A DNA stretch of 64,000 nt from an uncultured cyanobacterium (GTDB taxonomy: Bacteria; Cyanobacteriota; Cyanobacteriia; Cyanobacteriales; Nostocaceae). The translations under genes and the position numbers were made by a program. Below the pieces are notes generated by a model. It saw only the letters and a program-made list of their open reading frames with translations, was not told the origin of the DNA and did no database searches. Position 1 is the first letter of the stretch. Every line of letters begins with the position of its first letter. Of the stretch, positions 21,595 through 40,818 are shown one piece after another. Location of the stretch: positions 4,736,001-4,800,000 of the forward strand of contig OY970166.1 of assembly GCA_963706595.1 (NCBI GenBank). The letters are read 5' to 3'.

Positions 21595-23052
21595 TTAATT
21601 TTCCTGAATTTGCTCAATTTCATGATCTACAATTTCTACCCCGTGTGCAGCCAGACATTTTTCCCAACCTGCACGAGTTCCTATTTCGCTTTTCTGCTTG
21701 AGTAGTCCTAACTGCTGTTCTTTTTGAGTCAGTTGAGCAAATTCCTCATAGCGGGGGTAGTTGGGAGTGACAAAATTTTCTTTGCGGTGCAGAATTGGCG
21801 GATTAGCCCTATCTGCATAATCACGGTGAGTTATGTATAAACTTTTTAAGTCAATAGTGATACTAGCTTTTAAAGCTGGATGGGGATCACTGTCAAAATC
21901 TGGGTAAAACAAATAGGATATTTGCGGTTTTTCAATGTTGTATTTAATTAATGTCGCCCCATCAACACGCCCAATAGTGCGGCTGGCACAGCTTTCATAA
22001 ATTCGTAATAGGGGATCTAATGCTGGGAGTGCGGAAACATGAACATAAAGTGCGCCCCGTGTGTGTTTGCCAATTTTGCTTTTTTCACAAGCTGTTTGCA
22101 CAACTTTGGGATTACCTAAACTAAATAGTTTTTGGTCGGCGACTTCACAAGCTTCTGCATAGCTACCAAAAAAGGCTTTGATATCGTGACGCATTTCTGG
22201 CGCTAGTTTTTGCCATGATGGACGTTGCTCAAAGTGGCTGAGGGCAAGATATACTTGGATATCTAAAGAACGACGATAGGCGATCGCATCCCATTCAGCT
22301 TCATCGGTAGCTTGTAACACCACATTAAAAGCCCGGCGGAAGTTTCCAAATTCACTGAGTAATTCTGTTTGGTTCGCTAATTCGCCTTTAACGGGTAATC
22401 TGCCCCGTTTGGCAAAAAAGTCCATCAGAGGTTGCAGTTGCTCTTGATAGTCCTCAAAGCGCTTGCTGGGGATACGAACTCTGGGTGTAGCAGTGCTAGA
22501 AAAGAAGCGGATGGCTTTGAAATTTTCTTTTGCAGCTTCATCACGAAAGACGAAATACACACCCAATGCTACAGGTACTGCATCAACGTTGAGAACTTCA
22601 TTAATATAACTTCTCAGTTCTTGTTGTTCATAATATTTCTGAAAAGTATTCCGGCGCGTGACAATCCCATCACTGTAAGCTAGTTGTGCTTTGCTGGGGG
22701 CATTAATTAATACTTGAGCCGAGACAATTAACACCTGCTGAGTCAGTTCCCAAGCGTGGATGAGACTTTGACGGCGTTCCTCTTGGTCTTCAATGACATT
22801 CAGGACATAACCTAAATTGACCACATCGGCGGGGGTAATGGTGTCATGGGGAAAATAATAAGGGTCCCAGCCAGCGCTGGTGTAGCCTAAATTGCCGACT
22901 CGCTGCACATCACCACCGTAGCCGCAGCCGTAATCAAAGAATGAGGTTTCCTGATGAAGGATAGCCCATTCTATTGCTAAACGTACGGGGCGAGAGATAT
23001 CATTACGAGCGATCGCGACTCGATGACGCTCAATTTCTAAAGATTCAGGCAT
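21595..23052 (-). CDS. DNA phosphorothioation-associated putative methyltransferase (TIGR04096-like)
   Basis: SAM motif FFDYGCGYGGD, GWDPYY, VNLGYVLNVIE, NTFQKYY, NPPILHRKE; directly downstream of dndE. Confidence 0.88.
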   Translation of the reverse strand: MPESLEIERHRVAIARNDISRPVRLAIEWAILHQETSFFDYGCGYGGDVQRVGNLGYTSAGWDPYYFPHDTITPADVVNLGYVLNVIEDQEERRQSLIHAWELTQQVLIVSAQVLINAPSKAQLAYSDGIVTRRNTFQKYYEQQELRSYINEVLNVDAVPVALGVYFVFRDEAAKENFKAIRFFSSTATPRVRIPSKRFEDYQEQLQPLMDFFAKRGRLPVKGELANQTELLSEFGNFRRAFNVVLQATDEAEWDAIAYRRSLDIQVYLALSHFEQRPSWQKLAPEMRHDIKAFFGSYAEACEVADQKLFSLGNPKVVQTACEKSKIGKHTRGALYVHVSALPALDPLLRIYESCASRTIGRVDGATLIKYNIEKPQISYLFYPDFDSDPHPALKASITIDLKSLYITHRDYADRANPPILHRKENFVTPNYPRYEEFAQLTQKEQQLGLLKQKSEIGTRAGWEKCLAAHGVEIVDHEIEQIQEN

Positions 23053-23078
23053 ATCAGTTATCAGTTAACAGTTAACAG

Positions 23079-23486
23079 TTAACAGTTATTAATATCCTTT
23101 CCATCTTTCAGCGCCAATTGGATTAAATCTTCAATTTTCTTGATATTTGGATCTCCGGCTAAATAACCAATCCCCCGATGCAAATGCAGCCGAAATTGGC
23201 TAGCGAGGCTGTCTTTATCAATGGGGTAGCCGTCGTTGTGACAGCGTTGTTTCAAAGCGAGGAGGAGGATATCAGACATTTCGCCGCCAAATACCCGCCA
23301 AGTCATTTCCACGTTGCTATCTTGGGGAATTGGTACCGGTGAGGGTGCGGTTGGTTCGGCGAGGGAACGACAAAAAGCCCAACGACATAATATATTCCAT
23401 TGGTCAATTTTTGTAGTGCGCCTGAGTTTAAGAAGTTGGTCTTTCGCAGTTTGGGAGAGTTTAATTCTTTCTATTGGAGATTCCAT
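23079..23486 (-). CDS. dndE: DNA sulfur modification protein DndE
   Basis: QLLKLRRTT..WNILCRWAFCRSL, FRLHLHRGIGYL; dnd context. Confidence 0.93.
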   Translation of the reverse strand: MESPIERIKLSQTAKDQLLKLRRTTKIDQWNILCRWAFCRSLAEPTAPSPVPIPQDSNVEMTWRVFGGEMSDILLLALKQRCHNDGYPIDKDSLASQFRLHLHRGIGYLAGDPNIKKIEDLIQLALKDGKDINNC

Positions 23487-23630
23487 AATAATTCCATTAT
23501 ATTAATTTTTACTTGATAACATTTCTTTATGAGGCATTTCCCAGTCTAATACAGTACACAATTATCTGCGTTCATCTGCGTCCATCTGCGTTTAATTATT
23601 ACTGCTTGTACCTCAGTTGAATGGGAATTG

Positions 23631-23978
23631 CTATAAACCCAAACAGTAGCGAACCGCAGCTTCAACTTCAAGCATCTTAGAATCAGAAATTTTGCCAGTT
23701 GATTTAGCCACAAAGCGATTTGGATCTAAAGACCGAATTTGAAAACATAAAAATACAGTTTCTATCAGCAGTCCACTGTCACTGGGAGATATCCTAATAT
23801 TAGTGGGATAATCGCGCTTAATATTTGTGCCTTTCGTCCCTACAACTACAGTCACTACCAAAGGTAATTGGTTAATAGCGTCTACAGATAAAACTAATAC
23901 AGGTCTTGTACCTGACTGTTCTCGACCTATGACCGGATTAAGATTAACAAAATAGATTTGCCCTCTTTCGATATTCAC
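23631..23978 (-). CDS. mazF: PemK/MazF family toxin endoribonuclease
   Basis: RGQIYFVNLNPVIGREQSGTRPVLVLS, QIRSLD. Confidence 0.92.
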   Translation of the reverse strand: MNIERGQIYFVNLNPVIGREQSGTRPVLVLSVDAINQLPLVVTVVVGTKGTNIKRDYPTNIRISPSDSGLLIETVFLCFQIRSLDPNRFVAKSTGKISDSKMLEVEAAVRYCLGL

Positions 23979-24226
23979 GGCTGTGATAAACCATCCATTT
24001 CGGTAACAATAAATTCCTGATTAATATTGGATATTTCTGTTTGTATATCTGGATCAATAGCCATTGCAGCTAGTTGTTCTTGCATATATTTCAAATTAAT
24101 AAATCTATCTGATGTTTGCTGCTTTTCTTTCATTTGTTTTTGGATACGTTCTAAAAGCCATTCTAGTTCTTCTAATGACAAACCACTTAAGTCACGTTCT
24201 ATTTCTCGTAAATTTGATGACATCAT
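23975..24226 (-). CDS. Putative antitoxin of the MazF toxin
   Basis: Small acidic ORF overlapping the toxin start by 4 nt; C-terminal AMAIDPDIQ.E...EF....DGL. Confidence 0.75.
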   Translation of the reverse strand: MMSSNLREIERDLSGLSLEELEWLLERIQKQMKEKQQTSDRFINLKYMQEQLAAMAIDPDIQTEISNINQEFIVTEMDGLSQP

Positions 24227-24283
24227 ATTTAACTAGCGATTTTTACCTGTGTGTGAGATATCTATTATTTTAAACAACATCTA

Positions 24284-26269
24284 CTACCAAAAATATTTAT
24301 TTTCTATGATTGTAGTTTGGCGGGTTGAGGAATCGTATTTGAGCAGATATTCACGAGCGATCGCTTCATTATTTCTCAGTGTTTCTACTTCGTGTTTACC
24401 AATCTCAGTATCAGTGGATAACAGTATTACTTGATGACTAGCAGAGGGAAAATAGCGTTCTACGAGGTTTCCCCGGTGGGATGAGTCTAATCTCCCCAGA
24501 GGCGTGTCTATGGCTACGGGTAAGCGGTGTCCAGAGACTCGCGCTAATCCCCAGAGGAAGGCGATCGCTAACAGTTGTTTTTCGCCGGCTGAAAGTCGAT
24601 GTTTAGGAACTGGTTTACCATTGAAGTCATACAGGGAGAGGCTAAAGCTATCAGTATGAATGGCGACACGATGCACTAAATCTGATTTGTGTAGCAGGTA
24701 GCGGAAACATTCTGTAACTTCAACTTCTAGTTTATTCAGTTTGCGTAGAGTCAGTTTCTCCCGAAAAAGTTTGAGTGTATCTTGAACTTTAGCCGTTGCC
24801 GTAATAATATGTTCGTTATATTTGCGATCAATATTGGTTTCTGTATATTTTTCTAAGGTTTTTTTAGTAGTCCGAATTTCAGTTTCTAATTCGTTTAAAT
24901 TTTGTTTCGCTATTTCACAAGCTGCTTGCGCTTCTGCAACTTCTTTTTGTGCTGCTTGCAATTCATCTACCAACCTTTGATAATCTTCTGGAGATGCGGC
25001 TGTTTGAATTTGTCTTTCTAGGGTAATTACTTCTTCTTCTTGAGTTTGGTGTAGTTCTAGCTGCTTTTGAGTAGCGTTTTTTGTATGAGGTAAATAATGA
25101 TGAATAGTATTATCTAAATGATGCAGGGTTTCCGTGTCAGATAATAGCCAAACGTCCCCTGTGGTATCTTGCTTAATTAAATTATTTTCTTGATCAATAA
25201 AATCTTGAATTTTTTCTACTTGTTGATCAGCAATAGTTAATTGTTTAATTAATTCAATTAAGCGGTGATCTCGTTCTAATAATAAATTATATGCTACCTT
25301 AGCTTGTTGAGTCCGAAATTCCTTTTGTCCTTGGATATAAGTTTCATTTAGCAAAGGTTCAATTAAAGCTAACGGTAAAATATCCGCAGCTAATCCGCGC
25401 ATGGCTTGACGGGTATTTTCTGACTCCGTAATTAGTTGAGATTTTTGTTTTTCTAAATAAGTGCGATCGCCTGCAATTTTACCACCTTCAGAGATGAAAT
25501 TATCCACAGCTTCTTGCTGCTTCTTTTCCGCTTCTCCCAAATTATCAGTCAGTTCATTTAATCCAATTTCAACTTCCTGATATTCCTCTTGTTGTAGCTT
25601 GAGTTCTTGTTCAATTTCTTCTAAATTAGCCAAATCTTGAGTATCAGCAATTTCTTTTCTTTTACGGTTGACGATAATTTCTAAATCACCGCCTAAACGT
25701 TCAGCTAATTCTAAACCTAAAAGTCCGCGAATTGCATCAACTACAATCGATGGAGGTGTTTCTTGTTCTGCGAGTTCCTTAACTTGTTCACCATCAAATA
25801 AAAACAGATTAGAAATACCTAAAGGTAAGAGATTTTCTATATACTCATCCCAAATATTAACTAAAGCCGTATCCAGCCATTCTTGAGCATCTAGAATACC
25901 TAAGTGGTCTTTACCATCTTTAGGGTTTTTTGTCCAGCGCCGGACAACTCTATATTTTACTGGTTGGTCATTTTCAATATGTTCAAAAACCAATTCAATG
26001 CGAGTATCTTCAGTGGGTGAACTGTGGCTATTAACGCATTGGTTGAGAAAGTCATTATAACTCAAGTTACCACGAGTGGAACATTGGGCGCGATGACCAT
26101 ATAATGCTAGGCGAATTGCATCCATCAGGGTAGTTTTTCCGCCCCCATTCATCCCACCTAAGAGGATAATTGGATAAGAATTTTCTTCATCAATTTTTGG
26201 ATCAAGGTTGATGACCTGACGACCACAGTAAGGGCCAAAGTTTTGTAATACGAGTTCGAGAAATATCAT
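24284..26269 (-). CDS. dndD: DNA sulfur modification protein DndD (SMC-like ATPase)
   Basis: Walker A GMNGGGKTT, LFLFDGEQ, coiled coil, LSAGEKQ, IDTPLGRLDS, LSTDTEI. Confidence 0.95.
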   Translation of the reverse strand: MIFLELVLQNFGPYCGRQVINLDPKIDEENSYPIILLGGMNGGGKTTLMDAIRLALYGHRAQCSTRGNLSYNDFLNQCVNSHSSPTEDTRIELVFEHIENDQPVKYRVVRRWTKNPKDGKDHLGILDAQEWLDTALVNIWDEYIENLLPLGISNLFLFDGEQVKELAEQETPPSIVVDAIRGLLGLELAERLGGDLEIIVNRKRKEIADTQDLANLEEIEQELKLQQEEYQEVEIGLNELTDNLGEAEKKQQEAVDNFISEGGKIAGDRTYLEKQKSQLITESENTRQAMRGLAADILPLALIEPLLNETYIQGQKEFRTQQAKVAYNLLLERDHRLIELIKQLTIADQQVEKIQDFIDQENNLIKQDTTGDVWLLSDTETLHHLDNTIHHYLPHTKNATQKQLELHQTQEEEVITLERQIQTAASPEDYQRLVDELQAAQKEVAEAQAACEIAKQNLNELETEIRTTKKTLEKYTETNIDRKYNEHIITATAKVQDTLKLFREKLTLRKLNKLEVEVTECFRYLLHKSDLVHRVAIHTDSFSLSLYDFNGKPVPKHRLSAGEKQLLAIAFLWGLARVSGHRLPVAIDTPLGRLDSSHRGNLVERYFPSASHQVILLSTDTEIGKHEVETLRNNEAIAREYLLKYDSSTRQTTIIENKYFW

Positions 26270-26312
26270 TTATCTTTGAGTTTTTAAGATACGGGGCGAG
26301 CGAGAGAATCCG

Positions 26313-26428
26313 GGCGAATGGAATTCGCGGCTACACAGGCGAAGTCCACCTTCGTGGACTAATAGAAAAGTGAAGTTTTTAACCCGCGTAGGCGGGTTTT
26401 GTTTGTATAGCCGCGAATTCCATTCGCC
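26313..26428. repeat. REPIN-like inverted REP pair with internal hairpins
   Basis: 21-bp perfect inverted arms GGCGAATGGAATTCGCGGCTA / TAGCCGCGAATTCCATTCGCC enclosing AGTCCAC-GTGGACT and AACCCGC-GCGGGTT hairpins. Confidence 0.85.
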
Positions 26429-26437
26429 AGGGCTAGT

Positions 26438-26845
26438 TTAAGTAAGTTCCCATAAAGGAATGATAGATTTTTCACTATGATGTATGCCTTGATTTCTAAT
26501 ATAATTAGCTACGTTGTCAATAGCATCATGACTAACAGTAAATGATCCATAACTACCTTGCCATTTAAAAAATTCATCTGGCTTAACTTCATGAGTAATA
26601 AAATGAGAAGAACTACCCTTAATTTGTTTAATCAATTCCGATACACTAACAGTTGTTGGGAAACCTGTTAAAAGATGAACATGATCTTCAACACCACCGA
26701 TTGCAATAACCGTGCATTTTAATCGTTCACATTCTCGAATAATTGCCGCATAAACTAATTTTTGAATATCAGGTGTAATTAGCGGTAATCTATCCCATGT
26801 AGCCCAAACATAATGTAAATACAATTGCGTAAAATTTGCTCTCAT
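26438..26845 (-). mobile_element. tnpA: IS200/IS605-superfamily Y1 (HUH) transposase, REP-associated (RAYT-like)
   Basis: LYLHYVWATWDR, HUH motif DHVHLL, KWQGSYG, catalytic Tyr in NYIRNQ; no tnpB; flanked by REP-like palindromes. Confidence 0.9.
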
Positions 26846-26976
26846 TTCTCCCTAACCCGCGTAGGCGGGTTTTGTCTGTGTGGTTCTGCGATTTCCATTG
26901 TCCGGGTATTTTGTTCATTTCTCTTTAACCCGCGCAGGCGGGTTTCGTTTGTGTAGCCGCGATTTCAATCGCCCGG
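26843..26976. repeat. Two ~73-bp tandem REP-containing units upstream of tnpA
   Basis: CATTTCTC..TAACCCGCG(T/C)AGGCGGGTTT.GT.TGTGT.. repeated at 26843 and 26916. Confidence 0.8.
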
Positions 26977-27012
26977 TACTTTATAATCTTTATAATCAAT
27001 ATTCATTTCTCC

Positions 27013-28616
27013 TTAACTCTTTTTAAATTTCATATTTCCCCAACTTGGCGGTTTATCCCTTGCGTCGTCGCTTTCGTCCACAGCGTCGCCCAAAGTCAAC
27101 TGCTTGACCTTTTTCACATCCCCTTGGTCAATGGCTTCTTTTAAATCGCGTTTTAAATGAGCATTTTTAATCGCTTCCTCTGGAGAATGGGAACTGGTGA
27201 CAAAACATTTCTCTAGACTTTCATATATTCCCACCCGACGACCTTTTTTGCGATATTGGCGTTCTGTGTCTAACAGCTTAGACATCAGTTCTAAGTGCAT
27301 AGCATCATCGCCACAAATTTCCTCTAGCACTTCCCATTCATCGCTACCCAGTAGACTATAGCCAGCACCAGGACGAGGGTCTTGGAAAACTTCACCAGTC
27401 ACTTCTTGATAAATCCGGGGTAAACTATCATCAAATTCATGCTTTTCTTCTAGCCAAATGCGGCGAATTTCACTAAGTTCCTCTGGAGTTATTAGCGTAA
27501 TATCGCGCATATTCTCTGGTGCTGTCAGCCTGATTTTAGTTTGTGCTTCTAGTAACTTTCTTAACAAATGTTCTCGCCAAGATTTAACGTAGGGTCCAGG
27601 TATTGGCTCAATAGAAACTTCCCCGTCCAAGTTACGCTCAAATAGTTGAACTTCTCCCCAAATACGGCGAAAGTCTCGCTTACTTCGGTCTTGGTCAATA
27701 TTTAATTCTTTAAACGAATATCCAGTCAGAGGTTGCATCCATTCTTTCTCTTCATCATTTTGGATCATGGCTTGCATAGACTTATCACTATTAACTAATG
27801 TACAAACCCAGCATCCAAAACGAGAGCTACCACAACTAGGAGTAGAAGTATCAACGACTAAAGGACATTCATTATCTGCTGTTGCACCTCGATACATAGC
27901 AAATAAGTCTTTGTTGCTATATCCCCAAGGATTTGCCCATTGCATCAAATACATCCAAACTTCATCAGTACGCCAATCTTCGATGGGAGTATAAAGCAGT
28001 GAGTTAAGCCAGACTAGGATTAGGACTAAGGCGCTCTCGGACTCTACCAATTTCACGCTTGGCCATAATAGCCGCACGATTGGTACTTTCAGCTCTTGCG
28101 AGTTCCTAAGACTACAATTGTTTCACCACTAGCCCGGACAACATCACGAATGAAGTTGTTAGAAGGGTCAATTTTCAACCTTCCGGTACACCAACGGAAT
28201 TTGTGACGTGGTGCTGGGTAGCCTTTACCAATCAAACCTACCCAGAAACTCTGTTTAGTCTCTGGTTTCAATAAATGCGGTTTTATTGGCATTTTTTGCT
28301 CTTGAGCCGCTACTTTCATCTGTTCTAATGAATTACGTACCCAAGTAGCAACATAAGGATTCTCAACTCCTGTATCAGTTGTAATTACATGAATTGGTTT
28401 AATCCGTTTTTCTGGTGGAAGTTCCTGTATTGCTTTCCAAATAAGCTGTAAGGTTGCTGTGCTATCCTTACCTCCGGAATAACCAATAACCCAAGGTATC
28501 TCGTCTAAACAATACAATTCTTGTATTTCAGTGGTGAGAACTTGGATATAGTCCACTAACTCTGCTACAGTACGTGTTTGCGGAACTTTATTTTCTGGTT
28601 GTTGTGCTGTAGTCAT
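27013..28616 (-). CDS. dndC: DndC sulfurtransferase (PAPS reductase-like); interrupted by apparent insertion frameshifts
   Basis: GYSGGKDS, FRWCTGRLKI, LGTRK, PIEDW, CGSSRFGCWVCT; +1 insertions near 28094 and 28010, compensated +1/+2 near 27712-27727. Confidence 0.92.
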
Positions 28617-28803
28617 AATCTCTCTATATTTTTAAATATGGGTGTGAATTCATTTTTACTATCCCAGTCAATGGTATTAGCTGGTATACAGGCAAAATTT
28701 ACCTATGTGGGTGCAAAATTTTTTTAAAAACCTTACTACTCTTACTCAATTTTTAGACAATTAGACTATCCTAACACCATTTTGTTTTTAAAAATTAATA
28801 AAT

Positions 28804-30402
28804 ATGAAGAAGAATGTATCTGATCAAACTGCTGACATCGCTCAAGAGTATCTGGAACGAGAAAACAAGGATAAACAGGTACTCGCCTTACTGCTAGAGA
28901 AGTTCATGGGGAAGAAAGACCAGATTCTAGTCCAAAAAACCGAGATGGGCGGTACTGAGGCTTTTGTTGGTTCTGTCACCTTGGAATGGTTGGCTGGTCG
29001 TGTTCATTTCGCCTCTGGTTTACCCTTGCTTGAGAAAAAGTACAATTCAGACACTGGTAACATCGAAATTGACGCAGATAGCATTGATGAAATTCAGCAA
29101 CGTCCCATTGACTGGACACGTCAAGCGCCCCTAGTACAGTATTTAGCAGCGCGGAAAAGTCACAAATTCCCACCTGTGCTGGTAGTAATTAATCAACCTT
29201 GGGTGGATAATCCCAAAGCGGCTGAGTGGGATAGTCAGGGAATAGCCTTAAAATCTACTACTGATTTCACCGCTTTAGATAAAGATGGTAAAGTTGGTCT
29301 GCTGAATATTTCTGAAGATAATGTGACAATTTATGCTTTGGATGGTCAGCACCGACTCATGAGTGTACAAGGGTTGATGGAGTTAATCAAAACTCGCAAA
29401 TTGCAGCGCTATAAAAAAGATAAAACTGCTGACGATAACTTTATTACCTTAGATGATTTGAGAGATCAGTACCAAGTAGACCTTGATTACTTGCAAACCT
29501 TACCCAAAGAAAAAATTGGGATTGAATTTATCTGTGCGGTTGCGGCTGGGGAAACTCGCACCGAAGCCAGAAGAAGGGTGAGGTCTATCTTTGTTCATGT
29601 TAACTTAATGGCTGCACCATTGACTAAAGGTCAGTTAGCACAGCTAAATGAGGATGATGGGTTTTCAATTGTGGCGAGAAAAATTGCAGTTACTCATCCG
29701 CTTTTGGAACAACGAAAAGAGCGCAATCCTCGTGTTAATTGGAATAGTGGAACAGTGGCATCTAATTCTACTGTTTTAACCACCCTGCAAGCTCTCCATG
29801 ATATGTGTGAGCGATATTTGGGGCAAAAATTCCCTCATTGGAAACCTCTGGAAAAAGGCTTAATTCCCATGCGTCCAGAGGATGAAGAACTTGAGGAAGG
29901 AATTGCGGAATTTAGCCAGCTATTTGATAATTTAGCCAGCCTTCCCAGTTATAAGCTGTTGGATGAAGAAGACACTCCAGCTTTGCGACGCTTTAGTTTT
30001 GAAAAAGATGGGGGGGAAGGAAATCTGCTTTTCCGTCCTGTTGCTCAAGTGGCTTTAGCGCAAGCTTTGGGAATCTTGGTTTTTCAAAAAGGTTTTACAC
30101 TAGCAAATGTCTTTAAGAAGTTGCGGAAATTTGACCAGCAAGGCGGTTTGAGTGGTATGGAGTATCCACAGTCTTTATGGTATGGCGTTTTGTATGACCC
30201 TAATAAAAAGCGAGTCCAGGTTTCTGGACGGGAATTAGCGGCGAAGTTATTCATTTATATTTTGGGTGGAGTTCAGGATCAAATGGAACGTGCTGAACTG
30301 CGTAAGGCTTTGGCTGATGCCAGAACTATAGAAAATAAAACAATAGGTTTTGATGGTAATTTTGTTGAACCCAAGCAAGTAGGACTTCCACCCGTGCTGT
30401 AA
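28804..30402 (+). CDS. DGQHR domain protein (DndB-related), divergent from dndC
   Basis: IQQRP, FPPVLVV, LDGQHRL, IFVHVN; located in the dnd cluster. Confidence 0.88.
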   Translation: MKKNVSDQTADIAQEYLERENKDKQVLALLLEKFMGKKDQILVQKTEMGGTEAFVGSVTLEWLAGRVHFASGLPLLEKKYNSDTGNIEIDADSIDEIQQRPIDWTRQAPLVQYLAARKSHKFPPVLVVINQPWVDNPKAAEWDSQGIALKSTTDFTALDKDGKVGLLNISEDNVTIYALDGQHRLMSVQGLMELIKTRKLQRYKKDKTADDNFITLDDLRDQYQVDLDYLQTLPKEKIGIEFICAVAAGETRTEARRRVRSIFVHVNLMAAPLTKGQLAQLNEDDGFSIVARKIAVTHPLLEQRKERNPRVNWNSGTVASNSTVLTTLQALHDMCERYLGQKFPHWKPLEKGLIPMRPEDEELEEGIAEFSQLFDNLASLPSYKLLDEEDTPALRRFSFEKDGGEGNLLFRPVAQVALAQALGILVFQKGFTLANVFKKLRKFDQQGGLSGMEYPQSLWYGVLYDPNKKRVQVSGRELAAKLFIYILGGVQDQMERAELRKALADARTIENKTIGFDGNFVEPKQVGLPPVL

Positions 30403-31344
30403 TTAGGCTTGAAATATATTTTGGCGATGCCATTGAAGTGCTTCCATTTCTGGAAAGTATTGTTCTGTATTTGGTAGAAGTATTTTTTCCCCATGAAAAT
30501 CTTTCATAGGTTTAGCGTAGGGAGAAACTTCTGCCAAGTCTTGGCTAACTAAAATTTTGTATTGGTCATCTATGGTAAACCAACCCCGGTCAAATGCCCA
30601 ATGATGATTTTTACACAGTGCTATTCCATTAGGGATTCTGTTGTCATAAAACTGGGAAAATGGTTTAATGTGTGCGCCATCAATAATATTTTGATTTATG
30701 GCTTTAGTTACTTTCATTCCACAAAAAGCACACCTAGAATCATAAACATATACAATAGCTTTCCTGAAAAAAGCATTTCTAATTGCTGCTCGCTTTAACT
30801 GCCATCTTGGCTCATAATTTGCATTATCAGATTTAAGTAATTTTTCTATTTCTACAGTTTGGTCATCAAAAGTATCATTGATTTTCAAAATAACTTCTAT
30901 ATCACTTTCATTCTCAGAAAAGAAGGCTACCACGAGTGCATCAATTAAATATTTTCGAGAAGTTTCATCTTGGAGGAAGTTAAATAATTCAATATCTAAA
31001 TAGGCATATTCAATAGTTTCTTTCAGTTTTTTAGTCGTTTTTGGACGCAACCCATTAAAATGAGGTGTAAACGCTAAGTACCAAAATCCTTCATTTTTTA
31101 GATGGTAGAAAGGATAGTGTAAACCACCTTTGTGATACGCAGACCCTATAACATTCCAGTAATTAGTAAATGTTTTAATTAATTCTTGTGAAATATAAAT
31201 TTTATTATCGTTAATAATACCTCTGCTAATTAAGTCAACCACAGATAAAAGTAATATAGGTTTATATAAAGCATTACCAAGCTTCCGGCTAACACTAACA
31301 TTTAATTGTGAAAATTTTTGACGATAATATTCTAAATTCTTCAT
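30403..31344 (-). CDS. HNH endonuclease with SBD-like N-terminal domain
   Basis: N-terminal YKPILLL...YPFYHL..EGFW; C-terminal RCAFCG, GAHIKPF, NGIALCKNHHWAFD, LQWHR. Confidence 0.85.
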   Translation of the reverse strand: MKNLEYYRQKFSQLNVSVSRKLGNALYKPILLLSVVDLISRGIINDNKIYISQELIKTFTNYWNVIGSAYHKGGLHYPFYHLKNEGFWYLAFTPHFNGLRPKTTKKLKETIEYAYLDIELFNFLQDETSRKYLIDALVVAFFSENESDIEVILKINDTFDDQTVEIEKLLKSDNANYEPRWQLKRAAIRNAFFRKAIVYVYDSRCAFCGMKVTKAINQNIIDGAHIKPFSQFYDNRIPNGIALCKNHHWAFDRGWFTIDDQYKILVSQDLAEVSPYAKPMKDFHGEKILLPNTEQYFPEMEALQWHRQNIFQA

Positions 31345-31369
31345 TTTGAAGCTTTTTTAAAGAAATAAT

Positions 31370-31841
31370 TTAACTTAAAAATTTACTGAGATCAAATTCT
31401 TCGTCTGACTGTTCTTGAGCATCTTTTTCGGAAATGAGAACCAATAACAGACGTTCTGAATAATCAACGGCTCCTCGTAATTCATTTTGTAAAATTTCCA
31501 GCCCTCCATTAGCATACTCTTCAAATATTTGGGTACGTTGGTCTTCATACTCTTCTTCTCTAGAAGAAAGTATTTGTATATCTTTGGTTTCAGTTATTCC
31601 TAATAATTTGATAATGAGGTCATGTCCTAGAGAAGCAAAATTTTCTTGTGGAATTGGTGAAGGTTCCCTTTTTGTAAATTCGCTTAGAGGAACACGCTTT
31701 TTATTTTTCACACCTAAAGCCGCCGCAAATACCATTACTTCCACATAAGTTTGAAAAGGTCCAGTTGTGTCTTTTGATGCTAATAACTGTTTTACCAACT
31801 CAGCCTTATCTTTAGCAACCCTGATTCTAGTTTGCAGCCAT
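31370..31841 (-). CDS. DNA phosphorothioation-associated protein 4 (TIGR04062-like); +1 insertion near 31830
   Basis: Restored N-terminus MAANRIRVAKDKAELVK; GPFQTY.EVMVFAAALG; IFEEYANGGLEIL. Confidence 0.85.
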
Positions 31842-31899
31842 AATAATGATATCTATATTGTGACTATTTTAACCGAATATTAGATGCGATCGCCTATTC

Positions 31900-32505
31900 C
31901 TATTCCCCCTTCCTCTCTGTGTCCTCTGCGCCTCTGTGGTTCGTCAACTCCACATCCTCATAAACCAGAGATAGAGGAAAGCGAAAATCAACACTACTTA
32001 AATGAACCTCATCCCCCTCAGCGTAAGGATGTAACTCCCATAAACCCCTGTCATTCAATCGAAAACAATCCAAACTCATTTTTTGAGCATCAATCAGCAC
32101 ATACTCTTGCAAAGTTGCTATCCGACGATACTGCGTAAACTTACCCCCTCTGTCGTAAGCTTCCGTACCAGGAGAAAGAACCTCAACAATCAGACAAGGA
32201 TACTGAATAAACTTAATAGCTTTTTTATCCCTTGGATGACAACTGACAACAACATCTGGATAATGAAATGGACCATTTTGCGATACACCTACTTTTGCAT
32301 CTGCAATATTTACACGACATCCTCCCCCGCGTAAGTGTCCTTTTAACGCCGAAGCCAAATTGAAAGCTATATCATTATGAGGAATAGTCCCCCCAGTCAT
32401 GGCGAAAACTTCACCATTAATATATTCGTGCTTAACCTCCTGCGTCTCCTCCCATTCCAAATACTCCTGGGGAGACATATAACTTCCTTCTCGACTCGCA
32501 ATCAT
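31900..32505 (-). CDS. Uma2 family endonuclease
   Basis: KHEYINGEVFAMTGGT, YPDVVVSC, LIVEVLSPGT, LQEYVLID. Confidence 0.92.
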   Translation of the reverse strand: MIASREGSYMSPQEYLEWEETQEVKHEYINGEVFAMTGGTIPHNDIAFNLASALKGHLRGGGCRVNIADAKVGVSQNGPFHYPDVVVSCHPRDKKAIKFIQYPCLIVEVLSPGTEAYDRGGKFTQYRRIATLQEYVLIDAQKMSLDCFRLNDRGLWELHPYAEGDEVHLSSVDFRFPLSLVYEDVELTNHRGAEDTERKGE

Positions 32506-32581
32506 AACCCCACCTCGAAAACAACCACCCATCTCAACTCTACCTCTTCCCTCCGCGCCTCTGCGCCTCTGCGTGAGAAAT

Positions 32582-34478
32582 TCACCCCTGTGTCCTCACA
32601 GTCAAAACCTGCGGTGGAGTAGCATCAGGAGGATACAAAAAATCCACCTCAACTTGTCGCCTCTCTCCCCCTTGCATTTCCAACCTCAGCAAAGGTTCAC
32701 CAGTTTGTCCCCGTCGCTGTACCAAATGCACATAGCGGGTTCTTTCCACGCCATTATCATCGGGATAACGCACCCTCACCGTTCCCCGAAAAAATACCTG
32801 TTCCACCCGTGGCTGTAAAAACAGTAACCTATCACTACCCCCTTCATCCTTCACAGGAGTTTGAATAGATACAGTAACAGTCCGGGTTTGACTGCTAGAA
32901 TTACGTAAAGGCAAACTGAGATTGTATTCTATGCCATAGTTACTGTGAGCATAATAAGCCGTATCTACATAGCGTTTCAACATCGGCGCACTCTGAATTT
33001 GCCCAGTACCTGAGAGTAACTAAATGTATAGTCGCCAAAGGATAAGAAAACGCCTGTCCTCGCTGCGGTATCGTCAAATCTGGTACACTAGAATTATCTG
33101 TAATTTGGGCTTGCCATTGCGTCCCTTGGGAGACACCAGCCACCCGACTAAATACTGTGGGTTCTCTGGGAGGATCGAGAGGCGTAGGAATAGCATCGCG
33201 CTTTCCTGCTAAACTGCCAGTATCCAGAAGTCTTTGCCACTGGGCTAAACTGGGCGGAGTACTGCTACTCTGAGATAATTTTGCCATATAAAGCGGGCGA
33301 TCGCTCTCCAATCTAATCATCGTACTGCGACCACTAGAAGATGGCGATCGCACAGGAATCTCTAAATTCGCTAATATTTGGCTTTTCCCTGGTTCTATTA
33401 CCAATGTTTCCGGGAAATTAGCTTGTCTGACACCCCGCAAGACATCATTCATGGTCCGACTACCAGGGCCAGCGTAAACTGTACCTTGGGGATTATCTAC
33501 CATATCCGGCAAACTGATAAACGGTGATTCTCTGGTAAGATAACTAGCAGCTTGTAATACTTGCAATGTTGCAGGTTGATTTCCAGGATTATGGACAATA
33601 ATACCTTGGTAAACCGTGCGGCTTTGAGACGGTGTTTCTGCTCTAACTATATGATGGGCGAAGACATCAAATCTGCCTTGAAAAGAATAATTTAAATGTG
33701 CTTCTGGTGCTTGTTTGCCTTCTGGGGGAAAAGTTGATAGTAAAATGCCGTCAGTTGTCACCAATTCGGGGCTATTACTGTTAAATGTGGGAATAAGATT
33801 CAGTTTTCCTGGTAAACGCCGCACCTCTTGGGGATGAACTTCTATTCCCGCAATATATTCTGGGGGGACAGTGTAGATATTTAACGCCCGACACATTAAA
33901 GCGGCAACTTCCCCTCTTGTAGCACTTTGTAGAGGTTTTAGCTGTTTAATGTTAGGATAATTAACAATAATACTATTAATTGCCCCTTGAGCGATCGCAC
34001 CTTGGGCATAGTTAGGAATTTGCGCCGCATCATCGAAATACTGTCGTAATGTTTGTACTGGGTTAGGTACAGAGTTATAATTTTTCGCCCCAGCTAAGAC
34101 ACCGATAATTTGCGCCCTGGGAATTGCTTGATTTGGTTGAAAAATTTGCCCTGGATAACCAGCAAAGAATCCTTTTTGATAAGCCCTAGCAATAGCTTGA
34201 TTTGCCCAATGATTGGGAGGTACATCTTTAAATATAATGGCTGGGCGCTTTATTGGTGCGTCGGGGAAAGCATTTAACATTAATACAGCTGCTTCGGCGC
34301 GGGTGACGGTTGCATTGGGGCGAAAACTTCCGTCGGGGTAGCCTGTAATTAGTTTGCGTTCTCCTAATTGTTGCAGACAATCTTTTCCCCAGTGGTTTTG
34401 GGTGTCAAGGAAGGCGAGGGTGTGGGTGTGGGATAAGGTTAAGAGAAAGGTGAGTGTTATTAGGATATATCGGTTCAT
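32582..34478 (-). CDS. SLH-domain plus DUF3370 secreted protein; +1 insertion near 33011
   Basis: Signal peptide, three SLH repeats (GYPDGSFRPN..TRAE), FNSNSPE, AHSNYGIEY, FLYPPDATPPQVLT; removing one base restores TLGTGQIQSAPM. Confidence 0.85.
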
Positions 34479-34641
34479 GATTGTTTCACGCAAAGGCGCA
34501 AAGGCGCAAAGAAGAGAGGAAGAAGAATTACAGCAGGTTGCAGGTATATCAGGTACAAAAGCAATAGTGAAACTCTTGTGGGGTGGGCATCTTGCCCGCC
34601 CTTCTGTACCTCATCAAAATGAAATAATTCGTAATTACGAA

Positions 34642-36715
34642 TTACGAATTACGAATTATTTCTATGATTTCGGTATATTCAAATTCGTTGGGACTTTGCT
34701 TGACTAAGGGGTATCTTTGTCCTGCCAATTGGATATAATTTTGTTCACAATCTGGTTTTGAGGAATAATAGGTAAGTACGTATTCTCTACCTATTCTTTC
34801 TGTCATTTCTTCTTCTACTTCACCTCGCCATTGAGTTTTACTGGCTAAGACAATTAATTGGTTAGCTAATTTGGGAATTGTTCGGGCTATATGTCTCCGT
34901 GACATTTCATCTAAGCTGCCAAAGGGGGAATCCATAACAATAGGAAATGTGCTACTATCGGGAAGCATCATCATTTTGCGTTTTTGACTCCACTCTCTCA
35001 CTTTATCGATGATGCTGGCAATAAAGGATAAGCTGAGAATTTGATTTTCTCCGGTGGAAGCTGCAACTGGTGCTTCTATTCCCGCAGTATGTTCTACTAA
35101 GGTTAATTCATATTTTTCGCTGATTTTGGGAATATATGGTTTGACTGAAAGCTGGTTAAATATTTCTTGGACTCGTTTTTCTAGTTGCAGACGAAATTGT
35201 TTTTCTTGCCGATTTTTAACTTCGGTTAACCGTTCAATTGCATCTTGAGTAGCGTTAATGCGTCGCTGTGCCAATATTTGCCTTTCTTCATTCAGTTTCT
35301 GCTTGGATATTTGTTTACCTAAAGCATCAATTTCTGTTTTTAATTGAATAATTTTCTGCTGGTTTGCACCTTGTTCTCGATTTAATTCATCAATTTTGCT
35401 GGAAATCTCATCTAAGCGTTTTTGTAAACTGCTAATTTCTTCATTCGCATCTTTTCGCAGTTTGTCTTGAAGGTTATCTAATTCACCCTCAACTTGGGAT
35501 ATGGTTTCTCTTAACTGCTTAATTCTGGCTTGTTCTCTATCAACTTCTTCCCAAAAAGCCGCAGCTTGTTTATCAATTTCATCGACTTGAACACCCATGC
35601 GAATAGCGGTTTCTTCAACGGCGGAAGAACCAGCTTTATCTAGCCAAGTTCGGACATTTTCATGATTATCACGTACCTGCACTTAAGTCTGCACCACAAA
35701 TACAACGCTGGGATTTTAATAATTCGTTGACAAATTCTCGTGAAATTCCAGAGGTTAACTCACCTCGCTGTTTTAAGTCATCAATGATTTGCCGAAATTG
35801 TGATGTCGTCTCCCCCAGCAATACTGTATAACCCCGTGAGGAAATGATTTTTTTTAGGGCTTCTTTATTTTTCTTGAATGCTTCCTGGTTTTCGGCTTTC
35901 TGCAATTCTAAATTTTGCCATCTGTCTTCTATTTCTTTGGCTTTGACAAGTTCCAATAAACGGTTACTTGTCTCTTTTTTAAAGGTTTGCTGATATTCTA
36001 ACTCTTGTTTAATTTCTGTTTGGCGGTTGGTGAGGCGTTCACTTTCTTGTTCTATCTGTTCTTGCTGTTTTAGCAGTTTCTTCGTTTCTGCATCACCAAT
36101 GGCTTTCAACTCATTCTCTAAAGTTTTTTTCGCTTCTCCTAAATGTCGAATAGAACGGTTAATCACTTCTACACCCAAGAAAATCTTAGTCGCTTCCGCA
36201 ATTTCAGCTTTTTTATCAGAACGCACTATTTCTTCTATCCGTTCACCGTCAAAGAAAAAATATTGATGTAAACTTGCAGGTAAAATCTGATTAATAATAT
36301 CATCTGGCTGTTGTGGTGGTAAATACCATTTACCATCATCTTCACCTACCCACATCCGTAACTCGGTTTTACCAGCTTCAAAGTCACTGTCATTTTTATA
36401 AACCCGACAGGAACGTTTAACTTTGTAGCGTTTACCTTCGTGTTCCCAACCAACTTCTACCCAACATTCTACGGGTTGACCTTTTTGGGCTTCAGCAATG
36501 GAACGCTTATTAACTAACTGTTCGGCGGAGGCGAAAGCGGCACTAAATTTTTCATATAATACCCAAGTGAAGGCATTGAGTAAACTGGTTTTTCCAGAAC
36601 CGTTATTACCATGAATAATTGTGGTGTTCAGAGTATATCCCACCGCGAGGAGTATTTCTGGGGTTGTACCATAAAAGGAGCGAAAGTTGCACAGCTTAAT
36701 TGAAGTCAGCTTCAT
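34642..36715 (-). CDS. SMC/Rad50-like ABC ATPase with CxC hinge (DndD paralogue, PbeC-like); +1 insertion near 35672
   Basis: GNNGSGKTS, YFFFDGERI, central CICG, STGENQ signature, MDSPFGSLD. Confidence 0.88.
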
Positions 36716-36885
36716 TGCACTTCTTCCTTGACAATATCTAATATCTCTTCGTTAATATGGCTATTGATTTTTTTATCTAGTCTGCCTTTTTCCAATTTCC
36801 AAACTCGCTCAATAATCTGTCGCACTTCTGGCGACGCACTGGAAATTGGTTCCTGCACATCTTCAATATTTGTGTCTGGGAGCAT
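36712..36885 (-). CDS. Small helical protein translationally coupled to the ATPase (PbeB-like position)
   Basis: 57-aa ATG ORF; its stop overlaps the ATPase start (ATGA). Confidence 0.7.
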   Translation of the reverse strand: MLPDTNIEDVQEPISSASPEVRQIIERVWKLEKGRLDKKINSHINEEILDIVKEEVQ

Positions 36886-37269
36886 TTGGCGGCTTTTCAA
36901 TAGGTTTTCTTTATATTTTAGCTGCTAGAAGTCCTGCATTTACATCCGTGAAGCTACTATTACTCTTGGTTTTAGGTATTGCGGGAATTTTTGCAATTTA
37001 TTGCCGAAAAAAAAGAAAGCTTTATTTTGCGTTTTGGGTGTGGTAGATTAAAGATAGATTTACATTATAATCGGATGCAGGCTAAATTTTTAGAGCAAGC
37101 TACATCCCATTATGATCAACCTTAATATTATTCTCCCACACTTTCTGCTATTTACTACAAATTTTAAAAAATTTTTTGTTAAAGAGGAACGAACCGCCTT
37201 CGCGCAGCGTATGCCCCTTGGGCTTTAGGCGCAAAGAACGCCAAGAAAGAGGAGGAGGAGGAAGTATGA

Positions 37270-38745
37270 TCAAATATCTAATAATCCGTAACGTTTTTGT
37301 AAGTTGAGTAGTTTCATTCTGGCTTCGCCGGCGTTATCGGCTAAGTCGGCAAATTCTACGAAGCGGCGTAGTTCTTTTTTTAAGAGGTTGCGTTCTATTT
37401 CTATGGTTTCTCTATCTAGGTCTGGTGGTAGGACTATCATATCGAAGATGGTGGCGCGTTCTTTACCAATGTGAGGACGTAATACTCTCCCCCGGCGCTG
37501 AATGAATTGGCGCGGGTTTCCAGAACTTGATAAAATTACGGCTGTTTGAATGGCTGGTATATCAACTCCTTCGTCTAAACAGCGTATTGCGACTAAACCT
37601 TGCAATTCTCCACTTTCAAATTGACAGCGTAAGGTTTCCCGTTCTTTGAGGGAAGTGTGGGCGGTGTAGGTGCTGACTCTATATCCTAAGTCTACACCGA
37701 GAATTTTGGCTACGGCTTTGAGTTGACGCAAGGATGAACGTTGTCCGGTTTCTTGGGAACCATCGCTACAGTAAAATAATGTGTGGGTGCTTTCTCGCCG
37801 AGTTGTCATTAATTCTCGCAAAGCGGTTAATTTATTTTCTGCTGTACCAATTAATCTGGCGCGTTGCATTAATAAGGGTTTTAAGTCTTCGTTGTCTTCA
37901 AAGTTTCTGGCTTCGCCATTTTCTCGTTCTCTATATAATAGAGCGCGCCCAATTTTTTTGGTTAACTTTAAATAAGCCAGACTTTCCGCTTCAGTCAGTT
38001 CTACAAGTATGGGATAATACAAATAATGTACTAAAGCCCCTTGAGCGATCGCATCCTTTAAGTTAAACTCTGGTTGTAGCACTGAACCAAAGTAATCAAA
38101 TAACGATTGCGTGCCATAATCATCAAAATATCTTTCTGGTGTCGCGGATAAAGCCAGTCGTAACCCCACCCGACGCGGTAAATTTTCTTCTAATTTCGGT
38201 GCGCCTAAATTATGCGCCTCATCACCAATAATTAATGTTTTGGCAGGAAAATACTTCATTTGGGACTGAAAACCATCACCAATTAATGTGGAGTTGGTAG
38301 TAATTACCGTGAGAAAGTTTTGCGAACCGGAACGCAGATTATACAGTTGGGTAGACAGTTGACTTTGCCAAGTGCGTAAATTCTCGAAAGCTAAGATAGG
38401 CTGTAAATTAAACTTCTCACATTCTCGCGCCCATTGGGTGACAAGATGACGATAAGGACACACCACTAATAACACTTGTAAGTTAATTTGCTGGTATAAT
38501 TCACAGGCGATCGCTAAAGCTGTAATAGTCTTACCACTACCAGTAGCCATTTTCAGCGTTCCTCTACCATTGTTAGCAAACCAGCTAGTAATAGCCTGTC
38601 GCTGATATGGACGTAATTGCAGAGATGCAGGCAAAATTGGACATCCTGGTAATGGTTGACGAGTTTGATAACTCCCCTGACGTTCCCTCACAAATGGAAC
38701 TTTTAGCCTAAAAGTAGATTGTTCCTGTACTAAATAATTAATCAT
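37270..38745 (-). CDS. PT-system-associated SF2 helicase ('DNA phosphorothioation system restriction enzyme', TIGR04095-like)
   Basis: LRPYQ, MATGSGKT, DEAH, LSATPER, CLDEGVDIP, FIQRRGRVLR. Confidence 0.9.
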   Translation of the reverse strand: MINYLVQEQSTFRLKVPFVRERQGSYQTRQPLPGCPILPASLQLRPYQRQAITSWFANNGRGTLKMATGSGKTITALAIACELYQQINLQVLLVVCPYRHLVTQWARECEKFNLQPILAFENLRTWQSQLSTQLYNLRSGSQNFLTVITTNSTLIGDGFQSQMKYFPAKTLIIGDEAHNLGAPKLEENLPRRVGLRLALSATPERYFDDYGTQSLFDYFGSVLQPEFNLKDAIAQGALVHYLYYPILVELTEAESLAYLKLTKKIGRALLYRERENGEARNFEDNEDLKPLLMQRARLIGTAENKLTALRELMTTRRESTHTLFYCSDGSQETGQRSSLRQLKAVAKILGVDLGYRVSTYTAHTSLKERETLRCQFESGELQGLVAIRCLDEGVDIPAIQTAVILSSSGNPRQFIQRRGRVLRPHIGKERATIFDMIVLPPDLDRETIEIERNLLKKELRRFVEFADLADNAGEARMKLLNLQKRYGLLDI

Positions 38746-38836: not shown

Positions 38837-39439
38837 TTAATAACCGCGCCAAACTCCCACCAGAGAACCCTGCACCTGCACTTGTGTAGCGAGTACCTCT
38901 ATGGGCTTATACTTAGGATTTGCAGGTTTGAGGGTGACGCGATCGCCTTGGCGATAAAAACGTTTTAAAGTAGTACCATAGCCATCAACTCTCGCAGCGA
39001 CAATAGTTCCATTCTTTAACTGGTCTGGTTCTAAGACTGGATGCAGAAATACCAAATCGCCATCAGCAATTAAATCTTCAATCATGCTATCGCCCGCTAC
39101 CCGTAAACCGTAGCTTTGGGGAGGTAAAGAAATATTAGAAAAGTCTAAATGGTCTATAGCATCAGTAAACGGTTCAATTAAACCACCAGCCGCAATTGTG
39201 CCTAAAATGGGAATACCTTGCTTAACAGGATGCAAAATCCGAATCGTTCGCGCCTTTCCTTCATTCCAATCTATATAGCCTTTAGTACGTAAATGTTCTA
39301 AACGACTTTGAATCGGTGCAGGCGATTTCAGCTTCATTGCTTCCATCATTTGCCGAATGGAAGGAGAATACTGGTGAATTTTGATATATTCTACCAACCA
39401 ATCGTATAATTCTTGTTGAGCTTCTGTGAGACGTTCCAT
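38837..39439 (-). CDS. lexA: LexA repressor
   Basis: LTEAQ, YSPSIRQ, LGTIAAG cleavage region, GDSM serine, TLKRF lysine. Confidence 0.96.
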   Translation of the reverse strand: MERLTEAQQELYDWLVEYIKIHQYSPSIRQMMEAMKLKSPAPIQSRLEHLRTKGYIDWNEGKARTIRILHPVKQGIPILGTIAAGGLIEPFTDAIDHLDFSNISLPPQSYGLRVAGDSMIEDLIADGDLVFLHPVLEPDQLKNGTIVAARVDGYGTTLKRFYRQGDRVTLKPANPKYKPIEVLATQVQVQGSLVGVWRGY

Positions 39440-39471
39440 AAATTTATCGGGAATTAAATACAAATGCCTTT

Positions 39472-39485
39472 AGAACATTAGTACT
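39472..39485 (-). promoter_or_regulatory. Cyanobacterial LexA box
   Basis: AGTACTAATGTTCT on the minus strand matches RGTACNNNDGTWCB, about 33 nt upstream of the lexA ATG. Confidence 0.85.
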
Positions 39486-40492: not shown

Positions 40493-40818
40493 GCTTCCGA
40501 TTTGTAAAGAACAATCATCTATTTCTGTTCCTTGACCTAGCTGGGTCAAAAAAAGTACAGTTTTAAACCTGTACCTCATATTTTTGCATCCAGCCCAGTA
40601 TTTGAGTTAGTTTTTGCTATGCATATTAATTTAGCAACTTTACCAGTAATTCAAATCACTAATATTTTCGGGTTGACTGCGCTTTCATCACACCGTTAAC
40701 TATAGGTTCCCCGGTCAGGATATCAATAAATATTTTTTTTGCCCTTGACTATAGACAATCAAATTATATATGCTAAAATAGGAAGTCGGTTAACGCGTTG
40801 AACGCAATAACCATGCTC

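Follow-up and report, generated by a model that had tools for sequence, protein, structure and literature searches.

Organisation of the locus

The window analysed here, a 64,000-nt stretch of a Nostocaceae genome (contig OY970166.1, positions 4,736,001 to 4,800,000; the genome is a single contig, 94% complete), carries a candidate DNA phosphorothioate (PT) modification system, in which dndC, dndD and dndE stand beside a second module resembling the PbeABCD proteins of haloarchaea; all coordinates given below are those of the window. On the minus strand, in order of falling coordinate, lexA is followed by a superfamily 2 (SF2) helicase gene, an open reading frame (ORF) of 62 amino acids (aa), a CxC-type ABC ATPase gene, an SLH-DUF3370 gene, a Uma2 gene, dnd_assoc_4 and a gene coupling a sulfur-binding domain (SBD) to an HNH nuclease. 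Beyond the SBD-HNH gene lie a plus-strand DGQHR gene, then dndC, a transposase gene, dndD, a MazF pair, dndE and a TIGR04096 methyltransferase gene. Every gene that an earlier sequence-only reading of this DNA had named was recovered in its place. The features are as follows:

21595..23052, minus strand: putative S-adenosylmethionine (SAM) methyltransferase, dnd-associated (TIGR04096, E 1.8e-213)
23079..23486, minus strand: dndE (TIGR03184, PF08870, PADLOC DndE)
23631-23978, minus strand: MazF/PemK toxin, accessory (PF02452); only in some relatives
23975-24226, minus strand: probable antitoxin of the MazF pair, its role suggested by position
24284..26269, minus strand: dndD, ABC ATPase, intact (TIGR03185 above cut-off)
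26438-26845, minus strand, in an element at 26378..26969: Y1/IS200-like tyrosine transposase, accessory, flanked by three hairpins like repetitive extragenic palindromes (REP); not in close relatives
27013..28616, minus strand: dndC, broken; TIGR03183 matched in two pieces, with +1 insertions near 28093 and 28008
28804..30402, plus strand: long DGQHR/DndB-family protein (TIGR03187, PF14072), divergent from dndC
30403..31344, minus strand: nuclease with SBD (winged helix-turn-helix, wHTH) and HNH domains (PDB 8H0L SBD, E 8e-21; HNH_2), in the variable slot after pbeD
31370..31841, minus strand: pbeD (dnd_assoc_4), DndE paralogue (TIGR04062); a +1 insertion near 31829 cuts off the first codons
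31900..32532, minus strand: Uma2-family protein, accessory (PF05685), patchy among relatives
32582..34493, minus strand: SLH-DUF3370 protein, carrying a +1 insertion near 33010; unrelated cargo
34642..36715, minus strand: pbeC, CxC ABC ATPase; PADLOC PbeC PDLC02753 matched in two halves, +1 insertion near 35672
36712..36900, minus strand: small protein at the PbeB position, assigned from size and position; its stop codon overlaps the pbeC start
37270..38745, minus strand: pbeA, SF2 helicase without N-terminal HKD/phospholipase D (PLD) nuclease (TIGR04095; PADLOC PbeA positions 241-681)
38837-39463, minus strand: lexA, directly upstream of pbeA; LexA box at 39472-39485

Two of these genes (Uma2 and SLH-DUF3370) separate pbeC from pbeD, and the dnd operon is itself interrupted by the MazF pair and the transposase.

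A Pbe module lacking the PbeA nuclease

The sequence-only reading had described the second module as PbeABCD-like, and had proposed comparison with the Pbe proteins as its check; both profile and fold bear this out. The helicase matches the PADLOC PbeA profile with E 3.7e-164, over profile positions 241-681 only (1-240 being unmatched), and Walker A, Walker B and motif VI are kept in 63/63 helicase rows. PbeC is a CxC-type ABC ATPase with an RCICG motif, its profile being matched over the full length in a relative. For PbeD, which has no PADLOC profile match, the best two fold matches of the structure model are both DndE structures (Z 5.8, rmsd 3.4, 83 aligned; Z 5.7, rmsd 4.1, 96 aligned), with the next match at Z 4.1; the Z scores are modest and the model has a predicted local distance difference test (pLDDT) value of 65. 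A DndE fold for PbeD is also predicted in the available text of Rakesh 2024 (PMC10853773). The PbeB candidate, 87–100% identical within the genus, gives no profile match.

The helicase differs from a canonical PbeA at its N-terminus. The N-terminal HKD domain of outgroup PbeA finds 0 matches in this genome; the three PLD genes that the genome does encode all lie away from the locus. A split-off partner gene carrying the HKD domain was also considered, and no such gene was found in this genome. With a PbeA lacking HKD/PLD, the system is thus a variant of the PbeABCD/CxC system rather than a full member of it.

We surveyed the helicase in 251 genomes across the phylum (92 in the order, taken to be Cyanobacteriales in the GTDB sense, and 159 outside). 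A strong match is present in 80/92 order genomes, with best-match open frames of 383–553 aa. Outside the order it is found in 5/159 genomes, all with proteins of 714–745 aa; these have a PLD-like domain at the N-terminus, and their match to PbeA runs from end to end of the profile. The HKD domain is matched in 45/151 order genomes, mostly in frames of 580–1440 aa (a few of them short or broken), and the 5/5 such genomes that were checked also keep the nuclease-less copy. In our trees the nuclease-less PbeA rows form one side of a branch, with families grouping together; its SH-aLRT support is 95 (63 rows, quick search), 82 (39 rows, quick) and 94/89 (39 rows, careful), the 39-row tree being built without 14 of the family rows and 10 HKD rows that are distant. 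Since the nuclease-less proteins occupy a single branch side and group by family, the tree fits a single loss of the HKD nuclease followed by vertical descent.

No DndFGH partner found for the predicted Dnd writer

Profile matches place dndC, dndD and dndE all at the locus, dndC being frameshifted in the window assembly; it forms one long open frame in 37/38 relatives that have dndC, one of those being a partial match. The divergent DGQHR protein is conserved (95–99% identical within the genus). In line with the lack of dndA stated in the sequence-only reading, there is no desulfurase gene inside the locus: the DndA model finds 7 matches elsewhere, 3 of them full length and none above the DndA cut-off. 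Its other negative claim, the lack of dndFGH, was confirmed on a wider scale. TIGR03238/37/36 give 0 matches genome-wide, the DndF model detecting its target on a control plasmid (the G and H models have no positive control); tblastn with that plasmid's DptF/G/H, which covers G and H, finds no match in the genome at E 1e-3; and DndF is found in 0/151 order genomes. A dndFGH set elsewhere in the genome, which might have acted as the restriction arm, was looked for genome-wide and not found.

According to Fu 2025 DndC's specificity loop has a link to motif choice, R-x-K/R going with GpsGCC. The window DndC carries the loop GYPAP-RHK-FRW, and under this published rule its RHK predicts GpsGCC. Avoidance of GGCC was considered as support for this motif and rejected. 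GGCC is the rarest tetramer genome-wide (observed/expected ratio, O/E, 0.24); two genomes without dndC likewise have it at rank 1, and its O/E is only 0.89 in one dndC carrier, so the avoidance is not specific to dnd carriers. Cyanobacteria are, moreover, reported to methylate GGCC (PMC6560206, available text).

A locus outside the order (G262, L111:6301-18485) holds HKD-bearing pbeABCD, HNH genes, dndD, dndE and a long methyltransferase; dndC is seen there only as a short fragment, and a distant gene resembling phosphoadenosine phosphosulfate (PAPS) reductase is present.

The system is near-core among relatives

In 41 genomes, comprising this one and 40 relatives, pbeA is present in 38, pbeC, pbeD and dndC in 39 each, and the methyltransferase family in 38. 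The sequence-only reading had called the locus an island, a description that fails on this count: its core genes occur in 38–39/41 related genomes, the distribution is not sporadic, and the locus is thus near-core; nor is there a GC anomaly. Across the order, pbeA and pbeD are in the same 80/92 genomes and dndC in 77/92, nearly always as single copies. Writer and reader genes co-occur in 76 of the 92 and are both missing from 11; four have pbe only (all drafts of 130–250 contigs) and one has dndC only. Two genomes of 2.8–3.1 Mb (G224, G230) lack pbeA, pbeD and dndC, all of which are present in the same-genus G226 (4.8 Mb); this suggests loss with genome reduction. The genes need not be clustered: in G034 they lie at 3.04 (pbeA), 3.17 (pbeC), 0.24 (pbeD), 0.63 (dndC) and 4.06 Mb (methyltransferase).

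Within the family, pbeA follows lexA in 28/28 loci, as against 1/20 loci outside it, and the LexA box at 39472-39485 has exactly the sequence that PMC3091678 tabulates for lexA of Nostoc PCC 7120. A promoter scan gave a result at chance level (44 vs 43.8). Contigs from RNA runs of relatives cover the locus genes; such contigs cannot show transcription or strand, and were not used.

PbeD and DndC appear as matched alleles

Among ten genomes of the genus, lexA, pbeA, pbeC and DGQHR are 88–100% identical. In the same ten genomes pbeD and dndC sort into the same four classes, with identities of 60–73% between and 90–99% within classes for pbeD, and 66–81% and 93–99% respectively for dndC. Divergence at four-fold sites (eight genomes; between/within classes) is 0.49/0.24 for pbeD, 0.41/0.15 for dndC and 0.14/0.13 for DGQHR, and the excess in dndC spans about codons 30–390, a segment that includes the specificity loop. 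A partial Mantel test controlling for pbeA links PbeD distance to that of the DndC N-terminal part (r 0.45, p 0.001) in the 20 family genomes that have all five genes. The DGQHR gene, which lies between pbeD and dndC, shows no tracking (r 0.04 and 0.03) and stands outside the allele sets; the PbeD–DndC link recurs in a second set of 29 family genomes (r 0.22, p 0.004). In a survey of 85 genomes, 8/8 genomes of PbeD class PQEQF carry the loop RNR and 6/6 of class RQDYF carry RNQ, these classes having been defined by eye from the same data. The GAAC and GATC rules fit 0/85 loops, and 41/85 loops fit no published rule. The matched allele sets appear to comprise PbeD itself, DndC over its N-terminal portion and the gene that follows pbeD.

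A predicted complex of DndC and PbeD from an intact relative scored 0.00, which is evidence neither way. In G006 (L035:9527-17405), two DndB paralogues and other genes replace the long DGQHR gene and dndD is also a divergent allele (62–63%); a larger block was thus exchanged in that genome.

The gene after pbeD is exchangeable

The slot after pbeD variously holds HNH, DndB paralogues, GIY-YIG plus DGQHR, or AIPR genes. An HNH homologue is present in the fetched locus of 23/55 family genomes and 7/30 others (some fetched regions being too short to include the slot), and is matched in 8/41 whole genomes. It follows the class of PbeD: 14/15 of PQENF, 6/7 of PQEQF, 3/3 of RLETF and 0/30 of the other classes. 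The sequence-only reading had counted the HNH nuclease as part of the system; given that slot content varies among relatives, it is better described as exchangeable cargo than as a fixed component. In two genera (L042:10145-12826 and L045:7183-9867) the slot is occupied by a GIY-YIG-like gene and a 664-aa DGQHR protein in opposite orientations.

The window enzyme scores 123 bits against NF045808, below the cut-off of 180, and its HNH motif is intact. Its SBD pocket keeps the critical Pro and Lys and also a Tyr, with the His replaced by Tyr, and the pocket residues vary with PbeD class. Characterised SBD-HNH enzymes cut GpsAAC/GpsTTC DNA and <3.6% of them adjoin dnd genes (PMC7461809, available text), and DndI is reported to use PT as a self signal (PMC11662687, available text). 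Since its characterised relatives cut PT DNA and rarely adjoin dnd, the window HNH might either target a foreign PT pattern or read PT as self.

Frameshifts in this assembly

Relative to relatives, six single-base gains fall between 28.0 and 40.4 kb, namely two in dndC (near 28008 and 28093) and one each in pbeD (31829), the SLH gene (33010), pbeC (35672) and argF (40390); there are no such gains in the genes compared at 17.4–27 kb or 41.3–46.9 kb. We are fairly confident that they mark a poorly polished stretch of the assembly. That the insertions in dndC, pbeD and pbeC are instead real mutations, leaving the system dead in this strain only, seems unlikely to us, although the lesions are dense (six +1 insertions in 12.4 kb against 0.8 expected from the genome-wide rate, four of them striking system genes), and the private changes of dndC (9 nonsynonymous, 16 synonymous) are less clean than those of pbeC and exceed the ratios of two relatives (2/11, 4/12). 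No reads of this strain were found (best share 0.29). The same lesion is nonetheless found in the unrelated SLH gene and in argF (39571-40560 region), of which the genome has no second copy; all six are single-base gains; there are no private stop codons; pbeC does not look decayed, its private changes being 16 synonymous and 1 nonsynonymous; and the four bases gained in dndC, pbeD and pbeC are absent from the contigs of all four runs of relatives. Elsewhere in the genome 10/126 sampled orthologous genes (about 8%) are frameshifted too, and other ‘pseudogene’ findings in this genome should thus be treated with caution.

A proposed mechanism and its alternatives

We consider it moderately probable that the locus encodes a lineage-resident DndCDE–PbeABCD system for PT-dependent, non-cutting defence with exchangeable specificity. 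By homology, a housekeeping desulfurase of the IscS/NifS type would pass sulfur to DndC, which together with DndD–DndE would write PT on a short motif, perhaps of the GGCC type. The paralogous pair PbeC–PbeD, with PbeB and the nuclease-less translocase PbeA, may then scan DNA, the PbeD allele being matched to that of DndC such that reader and writer share a site. By analogy with the haloarchaeal proteins, phage or plasmid DNA without the mark would be held, or blocked in its replication, rather than cut; any cutting would be the work of the exchangeable slot gene, which in the window is SBD-HNH. The motors would be inherited vertically and the specificity parts exchanged by recombination. The haloarchaeal precedent, to the extent of the available text of PMC6459918, is that PbeABCD blocks replication without detected cleavage, needs PT and retains weak activity without pbeA. 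The reading draws further on the homology to PbeA, PbeC and DndE-like PbeD, on the co-occurrence of writer and reader genes, on the allele matching and on a slot stocked with genes of defence type (HNH, GIY-YIG, AIPR, DndB paralogues).

Saying this, several observations weigh against such a reading. Near-fixation, and the scattering of genes in other families, are unlike typical defence islands; 7/8 non-family 20-kb loci have pbeA without pbeC; and dndC, pbeC and pbeD are all frameshifted in this assembly. The HKD domain missing here is, moreover, argued by Rakesh 2024 (PMC10853773, available text) to be part of the mechanism through cleavage. On the side of allele matching, the correlation in the replicate set is weak (0.22), the C-terminus of DndC is tracked by pbeD as well (r 0.24 in the pooled set, 0.29 in the non-family set), and kin are not independent, such that the p values overstate. 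The matching is also imperfect, with class PQENF pairing with four different loops and R-x-K/R fitting only 44/85 loops; the linkage of pbeD to the slot is trivially explained by adjacency; and the same pattern could arise if one block had been transferred and DGQHR (four-fold divergence 0.13–0.14) had then been homogenised.

The order-wide, nearly always single-copy presence of the module, its grouping by family in one clade, its retention even when scattered, and the constant position of pbeA behind lexA in the family, downstream of a characterised type of LexA box, would suit a domesticated housekeeping machine. Here, after loss of the nuclease, the Pbe motor and Dnd writer would serve chromosome upkeep (DNA-damage or oxidative-stress response, or replication control), with defence secondary or lost, and Jian 2021 does propose an antioxidant origin in cyanobacteria (PMC8569181, available text). 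This idea predicts neither the deep matched allele classes nor the nuclease slot; 12/92 order genomes are without the module and lexA adjacency is rare beyond the family (1/20 loci), and we judge it rather unlikely. Concerning the SBD-HNH protein, it is possible, if on the doubtful side, that it is an independent PT-dependent (type IV) enzyme, acting against foreign PT and lodged in the slot without being a Pbe effector; this is compatible with the defence reading set out above. The motif preference and rarity beside dnd of the characterised enzymes would suit it, the host loop predicting GpsGCC, as would the retained pocket Pro and Lys and HNH motif, the 32/55 family genomes with no HNH in the fetched locus, and two more distant homologues with no dnd gene within 1.5 kb. 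Its dependence on PbeD class, both in presence and in pocket residues, sits less well with independence (though adjacency alone could produce this), as do the pocket His replaced by Tyr and the report, in the available text of Rakesh 2024, of a related wHTH-SAD-HNH in the Dnd locus of 698 taxa (PMC10853773).

Retention could also be explained by abortive infection or addiction, in which inactivation of PbeB by phage, or loss of the mark, would free the slot nuclease or MazF to act on the host; Rakesh 2024 proposes a suicide model for CxC systems (PMC10853773, available text), and a MazF pair and an HNH do occur in the locus. We think this improbable, the HKD effector of that model being absent, MazF and HNH being patchy, and archaeal pbeABCD without dnd being non-toxic in the available text of PMC6459918.

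Returning to the defence reading, a broader evolutionary scheme is one we put forward tentatively, as possible rather than likely: an ancestor of the order may have lost the PbeA nuclease once and fixed Dnd–Pbe as a core, two-clamp DNA-surveillance machine, tied to the LexA regulon in Nostocaceae, with the DndC loop and the second strand of PbeD forming a natural library of matched, exchangeable pairs that might include undescribed PT motifs. If so, PT would here serve to arrest foreign DNA or to manage the chromosome with no cutting involved, and the system would offer a direct test of what sets PT specificity.

Relation to known systems

The arrangement itself is already known. Among the rows listed in the supplement of Xiong 2019 (PMC6459918, as available), Nostoc, Anabaena and Nodularia appear as dndCD with PbeA and PbeC and without dndFGH, some with the methyltransferase; the available text of Rakesh 2024 (PMC10853773) reports CxC/DndE–DndDE tandems in 936 bacterial taxa and describes wHTH-HNH nucleases nearby. 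The basic gene set is thus not new, and the epithet ‘non-canonical’ from the sequence-only reading must be dropped, the combination being tabulated for Nostocales in the one source and a common class in the other. Its remark that the mechanism is uncharacterised holds: our literature search found no experimental study of cyanobacterial Dnd–Pbe. What goes beyond the literature found is the order-wide nuclease-less PbeA, the near-core status and the allele matching, although the supplement of Rakesh 2024 and its reference 24 may already list cases.

Comparison with individual systems, in each case with the available text of the source, is informative. DndCDEA–PbeABCD of Haloterrigena jeotgali A29 has, in the same order beside dndCDE, a helicase, a small protein, an ATPase and a protein of ~150 aa, and likewise no dndFGH; here, by contrast, PbeA is without PLD/HKD, there is no linked dndA, the locus is near-core and vertical rather than sporadic, a variable slot is present, and the predicted motif is GGCC rather than GATC. 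The CxC/clade-2 DndE systems of Rakesh 2024 (PMC10853773) share the CxC ATPase, a DndE cognate, small protein, SF2 helicase and adjoining wHTH-HNH. They differ in having an HKD-SF2 fusion in the vast majority, an HNH with an extra SAD/SRA domain, and cytosine DNA methylases unlike TIGR04096; the available main text has 0 occurrences of ‘cyanobacteri’. The cyanobacterial dnd lineage of Jian 2021 (PMC8569181) is alike in its monophyletic, vertical DndC/DndD in Cyanobacteriales and lack of dndFGH; the system is taken there to be without a restriction partner, and ‘pbe’ has 0 occurrences in the available main text. EcoWI, Mae9806I and SBD-Hga (PMC7461809, PMC6224610, PMC10602919) resemble the slot enzyme in combining SBD with HNH and in the pocket Pro and Lys, whereas the window enzyme lies inside a dnd locus, has the pocket His replaced by Tyr and falls below the NF045808 cut-off.

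In type I restriction loci, a fixed chromosomal site and conserved motors go together with swapped hsdS specificity alleles. In the present system, unlike with hsdS, two proteins (the putative writer DndC and reader PbeD) would need swapping in step.

How PbeABCD achieves its block is disputed: Xiong 2019 saw no cleavage, Rakesh 2024 holds cutting by HKD to be necessary, and the event is obscure in the judgement of a 2025 review (PMC12707154), all as far as their available texts go. A Pbe system that is naturally nuclease-less throughout an order of genetically tractable cyanobacteria offers a direct test of the question of cutting, and matched DndC/PbeD alleles are ready pairs for the DndC loop rule and for same-site reading by PbeD. 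The locus is relevant, too, to the view that PT systems of cyanobacteria lack a restriction partner.

Methyltransferase and accessory genes

The sequence-only reading had listed an extra methylase effector; the gene is present and belongs to a named family (TIGR04096), and there is no evidence for its action on DNA. Its closest named homologues are from Nodularia, Anabaena and Nostoc, and it has no PADLOC or Pfam match and no significant PDB sequence match. A structure model of low confidence (pLDDT 57) bears a weak resemblance to class I small-molecule methyltransferases (best E 8e-3), and the protein accordingly looks like a class I SAM enzyme in so far as this model can be trusted.

The insertion at 26378-26969, which resembles a REP-associated tyrosine transposase (RAYT) element, puts the Y1 transposase and three REP-like hairpin copies between dndC and dndD, an arrangement that only some relatives share. 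Outside the family (G033:C186, G026:C400, G032:C111, G029:C125 and others), TIGR04096 proteins are often 680–920 aa long; in the long proteins the C-terminal domain is present a second time at the N-terminus, and in some genomes the short form occurs alongside the long one.

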